Positions 30,572 through 36,124 of a stretch of 41,457 bases of DNA are shown piece by piece (the first letter of the stretch is position 1; every line of letters begins with the position of its first letter). The position numbers were made by a program, and so were the translations under genes. Location: the NCBI GenBank assembly GCA_048885865.1, contig JBHLLF010000024.1:1-41457 (forward strand), in the 5' to 3' direction. The notes under the pieces were generated by a model. It did not search any database and was not told where the DNA came from. It saw nothing but the letters and a program-made list of their open reading frames with translations. This DNA is from Candidatus Hermodarchaeota archaeon. Its GTDB lineage: Archaea; Asgardarchaeota; Thorarchaeia; Thorarchaeales; Thorarchaeaceae.

Positions 30572-32143
30572 TTGACTCTAGACTCCTCATCTCATCGCTG
30601 TCCTGTCTGTCAAAGAAACAGAGCCAGTCACTTGTGTGAAGATTGTGGGACGGTGCTTTGCTCAGAGTGCCTTGACTCAAGAACCAAAGAGTATCATATG
30701 TGCCGTGACTGTCACGCAACGTTGACCACGTTGCAAGGCGAAGAGATAGAAAGCTGTCCTGAGTGCGAATCTGAGAACATTGACGCAGGTAGACGCACAG
30801 CTGACATTTGTCCTCGATGCCACTCAAGTCACATAATCCTATTGGAGGAAAGACGACGAACTCTGGCGCAAGAGCTTAGGCAAGCCATCATGAGCATTCA
30901 GTACGGTCATACCAAATTGCGAGAGTTCATGACCAAGCTTGATAATGCCAAAAGAACGCTTGTATCCCTCAGGATGGCTAACTTCTTACATTATCATTGG
31001 ATAGAGGAGAAAGTCGAGTCAGTGCAGGATGAGATGCCAGCAATCAAGAGCCGAATTGGAAACCAAGCAGAGATAGTAGCAAAGCAAATCGCTGCTGAAA
31101 CAAAAGGCCTCATTGACTATAGCAAGTGGACTCCTGCTCAGTTCCCGTTCATTGAAGGTGTCAGAAATAGAGTATCAGAGCTCGGGACATACTACAAGCA
31201 ACACGTCGACGATAGCCTTGATGAGGTCAGACCAAGACTGAAGGAAGTAATGGCTCAGCTCGATGGTCTGAGCTATCATAGGAAGGAATTCGCAGAGTTC
31301 TATGAACATGGTGAACTCTCTGTCAATGAATTGCCTGTAGCTGCTCTGCCGGACATCAAGGTTGTAGGTAGCAACTTCTTGAAAAATGACAAAGCCTACG
31401 GTACACTCTTCATCACTAACAAGAGGCTATTCCTAGTGGCTGAAACGGGATTACTACGCAAGAAGACTGAGATTGTATTTCAGTTCCCACTGATGTATTT
31501 GAAAGATATCGAAGAAGATGGCCGACTTCGCAAGAGAATTGTGTTGCGACTCAAACAAGGCGATTTGAAGATCTCCTGCAGCGAGGAAACAAAGAAGGTC
31601 ATGCCAGATTACTTTGAGATTGCGAGGAAGTTTGAGAAGTATATGCAGAGTGATCTTCAGAGAGTTCGAAAAATAGAACAGAAGAACCTCAATATTAGCG
31701 ATGTTAGACTCAAGATAGAGGGATTGGTATACTCATTGCTCTCCGCAACTGGCAATGCCTCAGAAGTGCAGCAAAGATATCCTGGGAGAACTGATTTCTA
31801 TCAACCACGACCAGTTCCATCAAGATATGGGCGAATTGAGAATCCCTATAACCATCCTAAAGCGTTCAAGGAGCATCTTGAGGACACTCTTGGACGGGCG
31901 GATTATGGACGAGGATACTATCGAGACCCTTCATATCCAACTCCCGAATCTGATATAGAATGTCTCAGGAGAAACGCAATAGAGATTCAGAATGCGATTA
32001 ACGAAACTCTACATCTAATGAGAAACGGGCATTTGGTCCCTGAAGACTTCATCAGAAGATATCGGGGTCTCATGCGGGACTCATATCAGACCAATCGTGA
32101 AATCGAGAGAGCAACAAGGCATGGTCATGGGTACGGATGGTAG
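30572..32143 (+). CDS. Multi-zinc-finger / helical stalk / GLUE-GRAM-like PH / steadiness-box-like protein (putative ESCRT-I adaptor)
   Basis: TTG start after GGAGGT; six CxxC pairs in aa 10-83; GTLFITNKRL; C-terminal NAIEIQNAINETLHLMRNGHLVPEDFIRRYRGL. Confidence 0.7.
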   Translation: MTLDSSSHRCPVCQRNRASHLCEDCGTVLCSECLDSRTKEYHMCRDCHATLTTLQGEEIESCPECESENIDAGRRTADICPRCHSSHIILLEERRRTLAQELRQAIMSIQYGHTKLREFMTKLDNAKRTLVSLRMANFLHYHWIEEKVESVQDEMPAIKSRIGNQAEIVAKQIAAETKGLIDYSKWTPAQFPFIEGVRNRVSELGTYYKQHVDDSLDEVRPRLKEVMAQLDGLSYHRKEFAEFYEHGELSVNELPVAALPDIKVVGSNFLKNDKAYGTLFITNKRLFLVAETGLLRKKTEIVFQFPLMYLKDIEEDGRLRKRIVLRLKQGDLKISCSEETKKVMPDYFEIARKFEKYMQSDLQRVRKIEQKNLNISDVRLKIEGLVYSLLSATGNASEVQQRYPGRTDFYQPRPVPSRYGRIENPYNHPKAFKEHLEDTLGRADYGRGYYRDPSYPTPESDIECLRRNAIEIQNAINETLHLMRNGHLVPEDFIRRYRGLMRDSYQTNREIERATRHGHGYGW

Positions 32144-32767
32144 CTAGATGCCCAGTTCGCGCTCTAGGTCCTTGATGTCTTTCTCAAGGGTTTCCGATTC
32201 AGAGGCAGGCCTAGCTGCCACGGATGCCGCATCAGCTAATCCGACTTCCACATCGATCTCCTGCATGGCTGCAGCTAAATCATCTGAACTGACTTCCATG
32301 CTTGCATCAAGTGCCTCTGCAGATATAGCGCTCTCAATCTCAAATTCGTCTAGTCGACGAGTAATCTCATCAACATTCTCAACGAGCTTTCGGGTGTCAC
32401 TTGTATCGCCAAGCATTCCGAGAATCTTTGCAACCTCCTCGAGTGCGCGGCCTGTTCTTGCCGATGTCTGTGCACGATTGAGATGAGTAAGGATCTTGAG
32501 AATCTGAAGCCTTGCCTTGTCTGTAGAGAGCGCATATCTTCTGAAACGTACCATCTCAGTTGCATAGGTCTTGAAGGCATCCATTTGTCCAGCTTGCCGG
32601 GCTTTGATAGCTCGCGCTCTTGTGTCACGTTCTTCTTTCTCAAGCTTGTTTCGTTCACGAGCAAGTTGCTTCGTTAGAATCCTGAGTTGGCTGGAAACCT
32701 CTCCAATGTCGGGTTTTTTCCGACCCCATCTGAATGCCTTTCTGAGTGAATCCAAAAGTCTCACCAC
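32144..32767 (-). CDS. ESCRT-III subunit, Vps2/Vps24/Vps46 (CHMP1-3) class
   Basis: Basic helical N-half (QLARERNKLEKEE...AIKARQAGQMDAFKTYATEMVRFRR), acidic C-half, MIM1-like tail LEKDIKDLERELG; lies next to vps4. Confidence 0.88.
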   Translation of the reverse strand: MVRLLDSLRKAFRWGRKKPDIGEVSSQLRILTKQLARERNKLEKEERDTRARAIKARQAGQMDAFKTYATEMVRFRRYALSTDKARLQILKILTHLNRAQTSARTGRALEEVAKILGMLGDTSDTRKLVENVDEITRRLDEFEIESAISAEALDASMEVSSDDLAAAMQEIDVEVGLADAASVAARPASESETLEKDIKDLERELGI

Positions 32768-32928: not shown

Positions 32929-34152
32929 ATGTCTGATAGATTAGACCAAGGCCTGAAGAACCTACTTGACAAGGCCATAGAGCTTGACCAGAGAGGAATG
33001 AAGAAGGAAGCTGCTCAGTACTATCTGAAAGCAAGCAAAATTCTGATCAAACTGTCAAATGCAGCATCTCTGCCCTCAGTCCAGAAACATTACCTTGACA
33101 GGGCACAAGAGTGTGTTGACAGAGTCCGCTATATCTCTGGAATAAAGAAGAAGGCGAGAGGCCCTCCAGATGGTTTGACAACTCCGCCAGTGTTTTCTCC
33201 TGCTGAAGCAGAGCCAACAGCGGAAAAGTCTACGGAAGCAACAGCATCTGAGGCTGAGGTTGACGAGGATACCCGAAGACTGCAGGAGATGATAGCTGAC
33301 ACAATCATCACTGAGAGACCCAAAGTCAAGATGAGCGACGTTGCAGGCTTGGAGAATGCCAAGCAGGCAATTCATGATGCGATTATTGCGCCAATGAAGC
33401 ATCCAGAGCTATTCAAAGGGAAGTCTCGTCAGCCTTGGAGAGGAATATTGTTCTACGGTCCTGCGGGATGTGGAAAGACATTGATTGCAAAAGCGGTGGC
33501 ATCCGAGGTGAATGCCACTTTCTTCAACGTTTCAGCAGGCAACATTGTAAGCAAGTGGCTTGGTGAGTCTGAGAAACTAGTCATGAATCTCTTCACGTTG
33601 GCCAGACGAAATCAGCCGGCCATAGTCTTCATGGATGAGCTGGATTCTGTCGGAGTCTCTAGATCTGGTGATGACGTTGGAGGAGAAAGAAGACTCAAGA
33701 CTCAGCTTCTAACAGAACTGCAGGGACTCGCCAGTGATCTTGAAGATAGGGTCACAGTTATTGGCGCAACGAATCTCCCATGGGAATTGGATTTCGCTCT
33801 TCGGTCAAGGTTTGAGAAGAAGATTCACGTGCCGCTCCCAGACAAGCCAGCTAGAAAGCGAATCTTCGAGATCCACATGGAAGAGATAGATGTCGCTCCC
33901 GAAGTCAACTATGAGGAGCTTGCGGACCTCAGTGAGGGCTACAGTGGACGCGATATCAGTGTTGTCTGTAGAGAAGCAGCCATGGAGCCAATAAGGGACC
34001 TACAGCGTATTGGAAGAATGGATGATGAAGAAGAGATCATAGATATTCGACCTGTATCCAGAGAGGATTTCCTGCAGGCGATTGAGAACATAAGGCCAGC
34101 AACTTCTCCAGAGGATGTTAAGAGGTATATCGATTGGGCGGAGGGTTCCTAG
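32929..34152 (+). CDS. vps4: Vps4 AAA+ ATPase with N-terminal MIT domain
   Basis: MIT (KAIELD...EAAQYY...YLDRAQE), DVAGLENAK, PWRGILFYGPAGCGKT, SKWLGESEK, FMDE, ATNLPWELD. Confidence 0.93.
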   Translation: MSDRLDQGLKNLLDKAIELDQRGMKKEAAQYYLKASKILIKLSNAASLPSVQKHYLDRAQECVDRVRYISGIKKKARGPPDGLTTPPVFSPAEAEPTAEKSTEATASEAEVDEDTRRLQEMIADTIITERPKVKMSDVAGLENAKQAIHDAIIAPMKHPELFKGKSRQPWRGILFYGPAGCGKTLIAKAVASEVNATFFNVSAGNIVSKWLGESEKLVMNLFTLARRNQPAIVFMDELDSVGVSRSGDDVGGERRLKTQLLTELQGLASDLEDRVTVIGATNLPWELDFALRSRFEKKIHVPLPDKPARKRIFEIHMEEIDVAPEVNYEELADLSEGYSGRDISVVCREAAMEPIRDLQRIGRMDDEEEIIDIRPVSREDFLQAIENIRPATSPEDVKRYIDWAEGS

Positions 34153-34155
34153 GTA

Positions 34156-34878
34156 GTGGGCGTCAGAGAACGACGTAGGGAGAAGGAGAAGGAAAAGACT
34201 ACGTCAGAAACCTCAACAACAGAACCCACACTAGATGAAGTAATTCCTGTCGAAGAGATTGAAGAAGTAGAGGAAATCCACAAGCCAGAAGTTGTTGCTA
34301 CGCAAGTGGAAACAGATACTGCTGTCGAAGATACTGTAGAAGCCGAGGAGGTTCTAGTCGAAACGGAAGAAGTTGTAATCATGCCTCCCTGGGGAGATCT
34401 TACACAGACAGAGTGGATGTATGGTATACCTCCTCGAGAAGAAGACAGAAACATGTGGGCTGAAGAGTGGTCTGATTTCGTTCTTAGATGGATGGAAGCC
34501 CATGATGTCCATGTCCTATCTGTGACCGCCTTCATCAAGGAGCCCCCCTTCAATGATATCACGAATAAGATTGATTCTTTCAAGTTAATTGGCAATGTGC
34601 TTGTTGAGAAGGAAATTGCAGAATGGTTGGATAGAAACCAAAGACAATTGCGAGTCTACTGGAGATTCCTTGAGGAATGGGCGGACATTATCTATGAATG
34701 GGCTTTGAAGTCAGGAAAGGTCAGACTAGATGTGAAATCAATAGTCATTCAGGAAGAGGAGTATAGCTTCGCTAGACTGCCAGAGAAGGACCTTCATCAG
34801 ATACTCCTAATAATGGTAGAGAAAGGACTTGCAGACTGGGTGGACAAGAAGAGAGGGGCAATCAAAATCATCGTTTAA
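34156..34878 (+). CDS. vps25: ESCRT-II Vps25-like protein with acidic N-terminal extension
   Basis: WAEEWSDFVLRW and VYWRFLEEWADIIYEWA match Vps25 motifs; two wH domains; begins 3 bp after the vps4 stop. Confidence 0.85.
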   Translation: MGVRERRREKEKEKTTSETSTTEPTLDEVIPVEEIEEVEEIHKPEVVATQVETDTAVEDTVEAEEVLVETEEVVIMPPWGDLTQTEWMYGIPPREEDRNMWAEEWSDFVLRWMEAHDVHVLSVTAFIKEPPFNDITNKIDSFKLIGNVLVEKEIAEWLDRNQRQLRVYWRFLEEWADIIYEWALKSGKVRLDVKSIVIQEEEYSFARLPEKDLHQILLIMVEKGLADWVDKKRGAIKIIV

Positions 34879-34879
34879 C

Positions 34880-35653
34880 TCAACGTCGTGAAATAGATCC
34901 ACCATCGTCATGTTCCCTGGCACGCAGACCTGGGAAGTAGTATCTGCCCCCAGTTGAGAATCGAATGTCTGCAACAGCCATGCCGGCATCTACTAGACTG
35001 GAAAGAACTTGCCTTGCATGATCCTCGGACCATTTCATGAGCATCATTACTTCTTCAACGGAAACATAGCCCTTTGATGCAGCGAGGTTGACTACATCCG
35101 CCTGATCCCTCCTGAGCTCAAGCGGTCTAAGCTCTACTACCTTCACACCTCCGCGCAGCGTTCGAATACCAGGGATTAATCCGTGCTCAGCTACACGGTT
35201 GACAGCCTCGATTACATCACTGTAGCTTATTGCCTTTAGCTCAGGCATACGCTTCACAACTTCAACAATCAGCTCAGCCAGTCCCATAAGCCCCTTGGAA
35301 GCATGTACCGTTGCAACATCAAGGATTGCGAGACCAATGTGATCATAGTATTCATCCGTTGTCATGCCGTCGCCACGGAAACGGTTCTCACGACGGGATA
35401 GGTCCAGTAGCATTATAGCATCGGGGAATCTTTCTGCAACACGTTCAGTCTGAATGAAAGTGCCGAAATCTAGACCGATGCGCTTCAGGTCTGCAATGTT
35501 CGCCTTTACCTCACTGGCCAATGCTTCCGACTCCCTCTGATATGATCTGATGTCGACTATACCCAAGTCGAACATCTTCTTCAGCTGGTCAAGTGTCGCT
35601 ATTGAGGCGAAGAGTTCAGATTGGAGACGTTCTTGCATCGCAGAGACCTTCAC
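34880..35653 (-). CDS. Vps28-N-terminal-like domain fused to Vps22/Vps36 (EAP30) tandem winged helices
   Basis: aa 10-85 SELFASIATLDQLKKMFDLGIVDIRSYQRESEAL...FPDA; aa 100-245 DEYYDHIG...ISYSDVIEAV...PLELRRDQ...KGYVS...WSEDHA...YYFPGL. Confidence 0.8.
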   Translation of the reverse strand: MKVSAMQERLQSELFASIATLDQLKKMFDLGIVDIRSYQRESEALASEVKANIADLKRIGLDFGTFIQTERVAERFPDAIMLLDLSRRENRFRGDGMTTDEYYDHIGLAILDVATVHASKGLMGLAELIVEVVKRMPELKAISYSDVIEAVNRVAEHGLIPGIRTLRGGVKVVELRPLELRRDQADVVNLAASKGYVSVEEVMMLMKWSEDHARQVLSSLVDAGMAVADIRFSTGGRYYFPGLRAREHDDGGSISRR

Positions 35654-35782: not shown

Positions 35783-36001
35783 TCAGCTCTGCTTACTCGC
35801 TGCTATCTCTGATAAGAGATAGAATCCAATGAATCCACATACCAATGCTATGCCCAAGAAGAATGCAATTATGGTAGGTAGTCCCGGCATTGATGATGTA
35901 GTTGTATTGAGGTATGCAATTATCTCCGATGCAGCTACGCCAATGAAAATCGACAACAGAACCAAAGTTCCGCCCAATGATATCTTCAATCTTGTTTGCA
36001 T
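35783..36001 (-). CDS. Small 2-TM membrane protein
   Basis: ATG 36001 (MQTRLKISLGG...); two hydrophobic helices. Confidence 0.6.
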   Translation of the reverse strand: MQTRLKISLGGTLVLLSIFIGVAASEIIAYLNTTTSSMPGLPTIIAFFLGIALVCGFIGFYLLSEIAASKQS

Positions 36002-36124
36002 TAGCAATTTCACCTTACCCTGCGCGGGCTTGAATGCAGAATTTATAGCTTTGAATTGACGCAAGTAGCTGCATGTATAGTATGATTCTTTTAAGCACCG
36101 CAAATCAAGAATGTATTCTGTCAA

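Follow-up and report, generated by a model that had tools for sequence, protein, structure and literature searches.

How does a single archaeal gene come to carry parts of two different ESCRT complexes, and is the combination real? The question is raised by a gene on the reverse strand of a 41,457-nucleotide stretch of DNA from Candidatus Hermodarchaeota archaeon, a member of the Thorarchaeia (contig JBHLLF010000024.1; in what follows, the window is this whole stretch). The original prediction, made from the sequence alone, proposed that the gene joins, in frame, the N-terminal part of the ESCRT-I subunit Vps28 (Vps28N) to an ESCRT-II subunit of the Vps22/36 type. We find it very probable that the gene is the Thorarchaeial ESCRT-II subunit Vps22, in which the N-terminal helices have been replaced by the steadiness-box domain of Vps28; this judgement covers the whole explanation, including the origin and the mechanism discussed below. 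The gene, which we call the chimera, is laid out as follows (aa, amino acids or residues).

34880..35653, minus strand: whole open reading frame (ORF) of the Vps28N-Vps22 chimera, 257 aa from a GTG at 35653; stop codon 34880-34882
35390..35638, minus strand: Vps28 N-terminal (steadiness-box) domain, aa 6-88
35363..35389, minus strand: variable linker and fusion junction including Met97, aa 89-97 (about aa 87-97)
34922..35362, minus strand: Vps22 (EAP30/SNF8)-type tandem winged-helix core, aa 98-244

In an alignment with 22 homologues, which are 56-82% identical to the chimera and belong to Thorarchaeota wherever the source names them, conservation sets in at a methionine aligned to residue 6. 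Since the homologues begin at this methionine, the real start of the chimera is likely the ATG at 35638, which would give a coding sequence of 34880-35638 and a protein of 252 aa. Residue numbers below refer to the longer frame.

The homology of the N-terminal part to Vps28 was examined by five independent approaches. A profile of 85 residues, built from 23 sequences and searched against the PDB, has the N-terminal chains of yeast Vps28 as its four top matches (E 0.007-0.014); human VPS28 ranks lower, and no Vps22 chain is among the matches. The same profile draws 55 matches at E <= 1e-3 from 1.84 billion representative proteins. Besides proteins of the Thorarchaeial type, most of them are 200-235 aa long and align at about residues 10-95, and others are longer and align in their interior; a Pfam scan of 48 of the 55 finds VPS28 in 32 (best E 3.7e-19), Vps23_core in 6, UQ_con/UEV in 6 and EAP30 in 3. 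When the Thorarchaeial N-terminus is compared by hhalign with 17 full-length Asgard Vps28 sequences, it aligns to Vps28 positions 13-92 over 80 columns, with a probability of 99.2% (E 1.3e-19), and the multiple alignment of the two is practically gapless. The likeness extends to single pairs of sequences: by BLASTP, aa 10-91 of the chimera and P0129, a protein recognised by Pfam as VPS28, share 33% identity over 82 residues without any gaps (E 6e-12).

The predicted fold points the same way. In an AlphaFold2 model of the N-terminal domain (predicted local distance difference test, pLDDT, 89.9) a long helical hairpin, at about aa 7-29 and 35-58, is followed by three short helices. The top 10 PDB matches of this model by Foldseek are all VPS28-N (6VME, 2F6M, 2CAZ), with TM-scores (TMq) of 0.72-0.80 over 81-86 alignment columns, and below this group the TMq falls to about 0.36. 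Furthermore, the orthologue from the sister family, the second family of the Thorarchaeial order, passes both Pfam cut-offs by itself, with 55.4 bits for EAP30 and 26.9 bits for VPS28, where 24.5 are required. The original prediction had recognised the N-terminal pattern of Vps28 in aa 12-50, and the F...CPxA segment of Vps28 in a later F...FPDA. Both are present and agree with the comparisons above: they lie within the most conserved stretch of the protein, where ASIATLDQLKK is near-invariant among the 22 homologues, and the FP.A motif falls inside the near-gapless alignment with Vps28. As judged from profiles and the modelled fold, aa 6-88 of the chimera are homologous to the N-terminal, steadiness-box domain of Vps28, with a likeness far beyond chance.

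The remaining two thirds of the protein are more familiar. Pfam EAP30 (PF04157) matches the chimera at aa 82-229 with 52.1 bits, against a cut-off of 26.8 (9e-14), and a search of the PDB with the single sequence (phmmer) matches human SNF8/Vps22 to aa 95-243 with E 1e-16. The Thorarchaeial profile is closer to Vps22 than to Vps36, with E 4e-20 for SNF8 and 0.5 for Vps36. An AlphaFold model of the whole chimera (pLDDT 77) has two winged helices, and the best PDB matches of the core by Foldseek are the Vps22 chains 2zme_A, 3cuq_A and 1u5t_A, followed by Vps36. This core corresponds to positions 93-240 of a hidden Markov model (HMM) built from canonical Asgard Vps22, and no stop codon separates it from the Vps28N part, as had been noted from the letters alone. 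The C-terminal two thirds of the chimera are, on these matches and the modelled fold, an ordinary Vps22 core.

Which parts of the two parents, conversely, are missing? The C-terminal four-helix bundle of Vps28 is absent, for the protein has no room for it: the residues after aa 97 are the tandem winged-helix core. In a six-frame search of the chimera's own genome, the HMM for the C-terminal domain of Asgard Vps28 has no significant match (best E 0.085). The chimera therefore contains the N-domain only and not a full Vps28. The canonical N-terminal helices of Vps22 (H0 and the helical domain) are absent as well, since hhalign against the canonical Asgard Vps22 N-terminus gives a probability of 0.2%, and the alignment of the Thorarchaeial profile with SNF8 starts only at SNF8 residue 88. 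Both losses had been suspected from the sequence. For comparison we gathered Vps22 genes, 20 in all, from about 15 further Asgard families. These begin with MGLxEIExK..., and their profile covers human SNF8 residues 10-240 (E 2e-37); they therefore carry N-terminal helices of the eukaryotic type. We also considered whether the canonical Vps22 N-terminus might itself be a Vps28-like steadiness box, and this was ruled out at the sequence level (hhalign probability 0.15%). The chimera keeps Vps22 only from the conserved '...GKG.FY..LG' segment onward. As read from these alignments, the fusion is roughly Vps28[1-~95] plus Vps22[~90-end], joined by a short and poorly conserved linker, in which the model confidence drops (pLDDT < 50 at aa 87-93).

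A fused frame in a single assembly could mislead, and the original prediction had accordingly asked whether homologues keep the fusion or begin near Met97. The fusion is kept. Every genome searched from the Thorarchaeial order (27/27) has a full-length match over profile positions 1-247: 26/26 in the window's own family, and the single one available from the sister family. The same continuous frame occurs in more than 100 metagenomic proteins. Across 26 orthologous genes, the ratio of nonsynonymous to synonymous substitution (dN/dS) is about 0.15 in the Vps28N part, 0.81 in the linker and 0.07 in the winged-helix core. The codon of Met97 is ATG in 16 of the 26 orthologues, and in 9 of them it is not a start codon. 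Taken together, the conservation, the dN/dS values and the variability at Met97 exclude a misassembly, and they likewise exclude that translation begins internally, behind a frame that is not conserved. Estimated from these substitutions, the chimera is under purifying selection and its two-domain frame is real.

The chimera lies at the end of a compact ESCRT cluster, with vps25, vps4 and a Snf7-family gene directly adjacent, a linkage expected of a Vps22 gene. The cluster is flanked by housekeeping genes, TldD/PmbA and arginyl-tRNA synthetase on one side and aspartyl-tRNA synthetase and others on the other. Its further members are as follows.

34156..34878, plus strand: vps25 (ESCRT-II subunit); Pfam ESCRT-II PF05871, 1e-15
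32929..34152, plus strand: vps4 (MIT + AAA + Vps4_C); Pfam AAA 5e-39, Vps4_C, MIT
32144..32767, minus strand: ESCRT-III (Snf7 family) subunit; Pfam Snf7 6e-12
30572..32143, plus strand: Znr_PH_CC_SB protein, 523 aa, with zinc ribbons, PH-like domain, coiled coil and C-terminal Vps23-like steadiness box
31919-32140, plus strand: steadiness box of the Znr_PH_CC_SB protein, aa 450-523

Three features of the surroundings may be recorded here. The vps25 gene and the chimera are convergent, with 1 base between their stop codons (window 34876-34882), and there is therefore no intergenic space for separate terminators. Vps25 itself has an N-terminal extension of about 85 aa (window 34156-34400, plus strand), acidic, rich in Thr, Glu and Val and of low complexity, ahead of its Pfam ESCRT-II match (aa 88-188); additional N-terminal subdomains on Asgard Vps25 are mentioned by Makarova et al. 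2024 (mBio, PMC10936438). Between aspartyl-tRNA synthetase and the chimera, on the same strand, a 113-aa ORF (window 35783-36124, minus strand) begins right after the stop of the synthetase gene; it has two predicted hydrophobic segments and no Pfam match.

With what, then, might a Vps28 domain pair when it is carried by Vps22? The Znr_PH_CC_SB protein of the cluster contains several CxxC zinc ribbons, a weak bPH_3 match, a coiled coil, a linker rich in Pro, Tyr, Gly and Arg, and a C-terminal steadiness box. ThorAB25_08990 ('SB') is its orthologue, as is the Znr_PH_CC_SB family described by Makarova et al. 2024. The C-terminal 74 aa of the protein are conserved in 21 homologues and are the sole steadiness box found in the chimera's own genome besides the Vps28N module. 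We predicted the complex of Vps28N (aa 6-90, with an alignment of 59 rows) and the steadiness box (aa 450-523, with an alignment of 21 rows). The prediction scores 0.69, compared with 0.01 for the best of three controls; the mark for such predictions is reached by 58/80 solved complexes and by 2/110 mismatched pairs, counts which hold only roughly because alignments specific to this analysis were used. Three runs agree in 100% of their contacts, and the pLDDT of the partner is at least 76. ASIATLDQLKK, the near-invariant helix, and the conserved stretch 'G.LV.EDFIRRYR.LMRDSY' both contribute to the predicted interface. The Vps28N module is thus predicted, from modelling, to dock onto the steadiness box of Znr_PH_CC_SB.

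We now turn to where the chimera occurs and how it may have arisen. Pfam VPS28 (PF03997) is found above its cut-off in 101/151 Asgard genomes searched, and in 0/26 genomes of the window's family. The weak PF03997 matches in that family belong either to the Vps22 gene itself (model positions 2-60) or to a BAR-like coiled-coil protein. In a six-frame search of the chimera's own genome, which is 87% complete, there is one Vps28N and one Vps23-like steadiness box. A 411-aa protein on contig C3 (L001:838-2073, minus strand, the same as G000:C3:132398-133633), with a PF03997 E-value of 4e-4, was considered as a free Vps28 and ruled out, since hhalign against Asgard Vps28 gives a probability of 1%. 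It belongs to a conserved Thorarchaeial coiled-coil family with weak Pfam BAR matches, which yields spurious weak PF03997 matches in several Thorarchaeial genomes.

Elsewhere the two parental genes are neighbours. In 13 other sampled Asgard families, by the search coordinates, vps22 directly follows vps28 in the same orientation, and at the three such loci viewed in detail the ORFs overlap by 4 nucleotides (nt), abut exactly, and overlap, respectively. Since free Vps28 is absent from the 26 searched genomes of the Thorarchaeial family and vps28 abuts or overlaps vps22 in most other Asgard lineages, an in-situ fusion by deletion is indicated: an in-frame deletion between the abutting genes would be the simplest origin of the chimera. 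A deletion of roughly 600-700 nt would take out the Vps28 C-terminal domain together with the N-terminal helices of Vps22. Among the 55 library matches of the N-terminal profile, none is an intermediate in which a full-length Vps28 is fused to a full-length Vps22.

A second lineage carries the same combination. The more divergent protein P0174 (L088:6001-6948), from metagenome-assembled genomes of 'Candidatus Ranarchaeia', has 315 aa and likewise joins Vps28N to Vps22, through a linker that is longer, at about 60 aa. Its locus has the same vps22/vps25/vps4/Snf7 arrangement, downstream of a protein with a zinc ribbon and Yip1, and its winged-helix core is nearer to canonical Asgard Vps22 than the Thorarchaeial core is. 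The vps22 and vps25 genes of Ranarchaeia are likewise convergent, with a gap of about 30 nt. The long Vps22 proteins of one further Asgard family, f22, were considered as additional fusions and rejected, since they have no Vps28N match and keep a helical region of the canonical type. In this family (L084-L087, e.g. L084:270-1319, minus strand) the Vps22 frame is 329-350 aa long and carries about 100 aa of additional helical sequence at its N-terminus, and vps28 lies on contigs other than that of Vps22.

What would such a protein do? The ESCRT-I headpiece of eukaryotes brings Vps28-N together with hairpins from the C-terminal ends of Vps23 and Vps37, and it is the Vps28 C-terminal domain that reaches ESCRT-II, via Vps36 (PMC10936438). 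In the chimera, the winged-helix core would act as it does in ESCRT-II and bind Vps25, the product of the neighbouring gene, which would recruit ESCRT-III and Vps4. The Vps28N hairpin would pair with the Vps23-like steadiness box of Znr_PH_CC_SB to form a joint like that of the ESCRT-I headpiece, so that the N-terminus of the chimera would plug directly into an ESCRT-I-like membrane adaptor. With its core in ESCRT-II and its hairpin on a steadiness box, the chimera would therefore place within one polypeptide the link between ESCRT-I and ESCRT-II that is non-covalent in eukaryotes. According to the literature, the Thorarchaeial lineage is also without UEV-Vps23 and ubiquitin. One may go further and suppose that Thorarchaeia, and probably Ranarchaeia, collapsed the boundary between the two complexes: a single deletion chimera would have replaced both parents, free Vps28 and the bridge formed by its C-terminal domain would then have been lost, and there would now be a supercomplex independent of ubiquitin, with the membrane-binding Znr_PH_CC_SB plugged directly into ESCRT-II by a hairpin joint of the headpiece kind. 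Our own confidence in this wider scenario is evenly balanced between acceptance and rejection.

A second EAP30 paralogue in the genome deserves mention in this context. It is 767 aa long (L083:2095-4398, plus strand, the same as G000:C52:9594-11897), and the profile of canonical Asgard Vps22, from its position 18 onward, aligns with the C-terminal 220 aa or so (E 7e-40). It therefore keeps the canonical helical domain along with the tandem winged helices, unlike the chimera. Upstream of these it has an unassigned N-terminal domain, a coiled coil and a CarboxypepD_reg/Ig-like domain. Most genomes of the Thorarchaeial family have open frames like it, 777-857 aa in length. This paralogue could be a Vps36-like partner of the chimera. 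Upstream of it (L083:2-2027, minus strand, the same as G000:C52:7501-9526) lie three genes. One encodes a B-box/zinc-ribbon protein of 128 aa, another a protein of 367 aa with a weak winged-helix (Cmi2_C) match, and the third a protein whose roadblock/longin-like N-terminus is followed by a small-GTPase P-loop; the three may form another trafficking-related cluster.

Several points weigh against our explanation, and it is important to state them together. Pfam scans with the single sequence, whether of the whole protein or of aa 1-96, give no VPS28 match at E <= 1 and only noise (Creatinase_N, DUF7709); the assignment therefore rests on the profiles, the pairwise BLAST and the fold. For the 85-residue domain, Foldseek reaches E-values of no better than 0.045-0.17, short of 1e-3, and we therefore rely on the ranking and the TM-scores instead. 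Because solved structures of Vps23-C with Vps28-N exist (2F6M, 6VME), the predicted pairing may reflect memory or likeness rather than binding. Our account leaves unexplained how the chimera would dimerise without the canonical helical domain. Given that the chimera's own genome is incomplete, the missing free Vps28 in that genome alone is weak evidence, and its lack across the 26 genomes of the family is the stronger evidence. Finally, the proposed deletion derives from synteny in other lineages and not from direct observation.

It remains to weigh these results against other explanations of the same protein. Perhaps the N-terminal 90 residues are simply the ordinary Vps22 helices, H0 and the helical domain, with a superficial likeness to Vps28. 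The length ahead of the winged-helix core is indeed similar, about 94 aa against 88 aa in human SNF8, and the orthologue ThorAB25_09030 figures simply as 'Vps22' in Hatano et al. 2022 (PMC9192718). Nevertheless, the N-terminus resembles Vps28 (99.2% by hhalign) and not the canonical Asgard Vps22 N-terminus (0.2%), which was a specific concern of the original prediction; the alignment with SNF8 begins at residue 88 rather than at residue 10 as in other Asgard Vps22; and the canonical N-terminus is itself unlike Vps28. We give this explanation almost no credence. The same holds for the idea that the frame is an artefact or two genes, be it by misassembly or because a small Vps28N-like ORF is read into a Vps22 that starts at Met97. 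Met97 does stand just ahead of the core, and the linker is poorly conserved, as such an idea would have it; yet 27/27 independently assembled genomes of the order and over 100 metagenomic proteins share the frame, the codon is a non-start in 9/26 orthologues, the junction has no stop, and the N-terminal part is under purifying selection in that very frame (dN/dS 0.15), all of which makes an artefact exceedingly improbable.

Helical hairpins are simple, and the N-terminus might therefore be a generic steadiness-box or coiled-coil hairpin that arose by convergence or derives from another such family (Vps23, Vps37, CdvA). A weaker CdvA/SB match for the same residues (probability 85) is listed in Table S3 of Makarova et al. 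2024, and the sister-family orthologue has a weak Vps23_core match (E 0.005). The near-gapless alignment of about 80 residues, however, extends past the hairpin and takes in the three short helices that follow it as well as the FP.A motif. The top 10 folds are all VPS28-N over 81-86 columns, whereas matches to Vps23-C extend over about 54 columns, and hhalign against the neighbour's Vps23-like steadiness box gives only 13%; a generic hairpin is, in our view, very unlikely. More serious is the suggestion that the Vps28N hairpin serves mainly as a homodimerisation module, in place of the lost Vps22/Vps36 interface, and does not dock onto an ESCRT-I-like partner. Thorarchaeial Vps22 interacts with itself in yeast two-hybrid assays (Hatano et al. 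2022), the canonical helical domain that contributes to the interface with Vps36 is gone, and steadiness-box hairpins are known to pack mutually in the ESCRT-I headpiece. On the other hand, the complex prediction favours, at high confidence and with clean controls, a heterotypic pairing of the hairpin with the steadiness box next door, Vps28-N pairs with Vps23-C in solved structures (2F6M, 6VME), and the winged-helix core is an equally possible source of the self-association. Self-association and docking are compatible roles. We consider homodimerisation as the main function a minority view, rather unlikely but deserving of some weight, and we retain the docking of Vps28N onto Znr_PH_CC_SB as the preferred mechanism.

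The fusion itself is not new. Table S3 of Makarova et al. 2024 assigns aa 1-70 of KXH75178.1, a Thorarchaeota Vps22, to PF03997 'VPS28 protein (N-terminal domain - SB)' with an HHpred probability of 99. Since KXH75178.1 is an orthologue of the chimera gene, the Vps28N-Vps22 fusion is confirmed here, but it was already published in 2024. KXH75178.1 / ThorAB25_09030 agrees with the chimera in architecture and in N-terminal sequence (the start of ThorAB25_09030 reads MHERLHSELFASIATLDQLKK...), and it differs by sequence divergence only, with about 70-84% identity to the Thorarchaeial homologues found. The genes ThorAB25_08990 to 09030 (Hatano et al. 2022, Suppl. Data 1) stand in the same order as in the window: SB protein, ESCRT-IIIA, Vps4, Vps25, Vps22. 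The text of Makarova et al. 2024 ascribes the steadiness-box fusion to the whole Vps22 asCOG (cog.002769). This generalisation to all Asgard Vps22 seems over-broad and drawn from a Thorarchaeial representative, because we find Vps28N only in the Thorarchaeial order and in one Ranarchaeia protein, and the other sampled Asgard Vps22 keep their helices. What we add is the lineage restriction, within the genomes and libraries searched, its coincidence with the absence of free Vps28, and a specific predicted partner.

Three known systems help to place the chimera. With eukaryotic and canonical Asgard Vps22 (SNF8/EAP30; 2ZME, 3CUQ, 1U5T) it has in common the tandem winged-helix core and the linkage to vps25 and vps4; the canonical protein, however, has an N-terminal basic helix and a helical domain that packs on Vps36, where the chimera has Vps28-N. 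With Vps28 (PF03997; 2F6M, 2CAZ, 2P22, 6VME) it shares the N-domain fold, with detectable homology, and the chimera is likewise predicted to pair with a steadiness box of the Vps23 type. In eukaryotes the C-terminal four-helix bundle of Vps28 contacts Vps36 and Vps20, whereas the chimera is without the bundle and its link to ESCRT-II is covalent. The Heimdallarchaeial UEV-Vps23-Vps28 fusion (HeimAB125_14070; Hatano et al. 2022) is also a case of a Vps28 module joined to a neighbouring ESCRT product, and its Vps28N segment (…ADLFASIATLDNL…) is clearly alignable to the chimera. That fusion, however, stays within ESCRT-I and keeps the Vps28 C-terminal domain, while the chimera crosses from ESCRT-I to ESCRT-II and drops it.

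Asgard ESCRT systems serve as models for the modular assembly of the eukaryotic ubiquitin-ESCRT pathway. The chimera indicates that a covalent link between ESCRT-I and ESCRT-II is possible in which neither the Vps28 C-terminal domain nor Vps36 takes part. With Znr_PH_CC_SB, the chimera, Vps25, ESCRT-III and Vps4 encoded in a 5-kb cluster, the Thorarchaeial locus would offer a minimal natural system for the formation of the headpiece and the recruitment of ESCRT-II.

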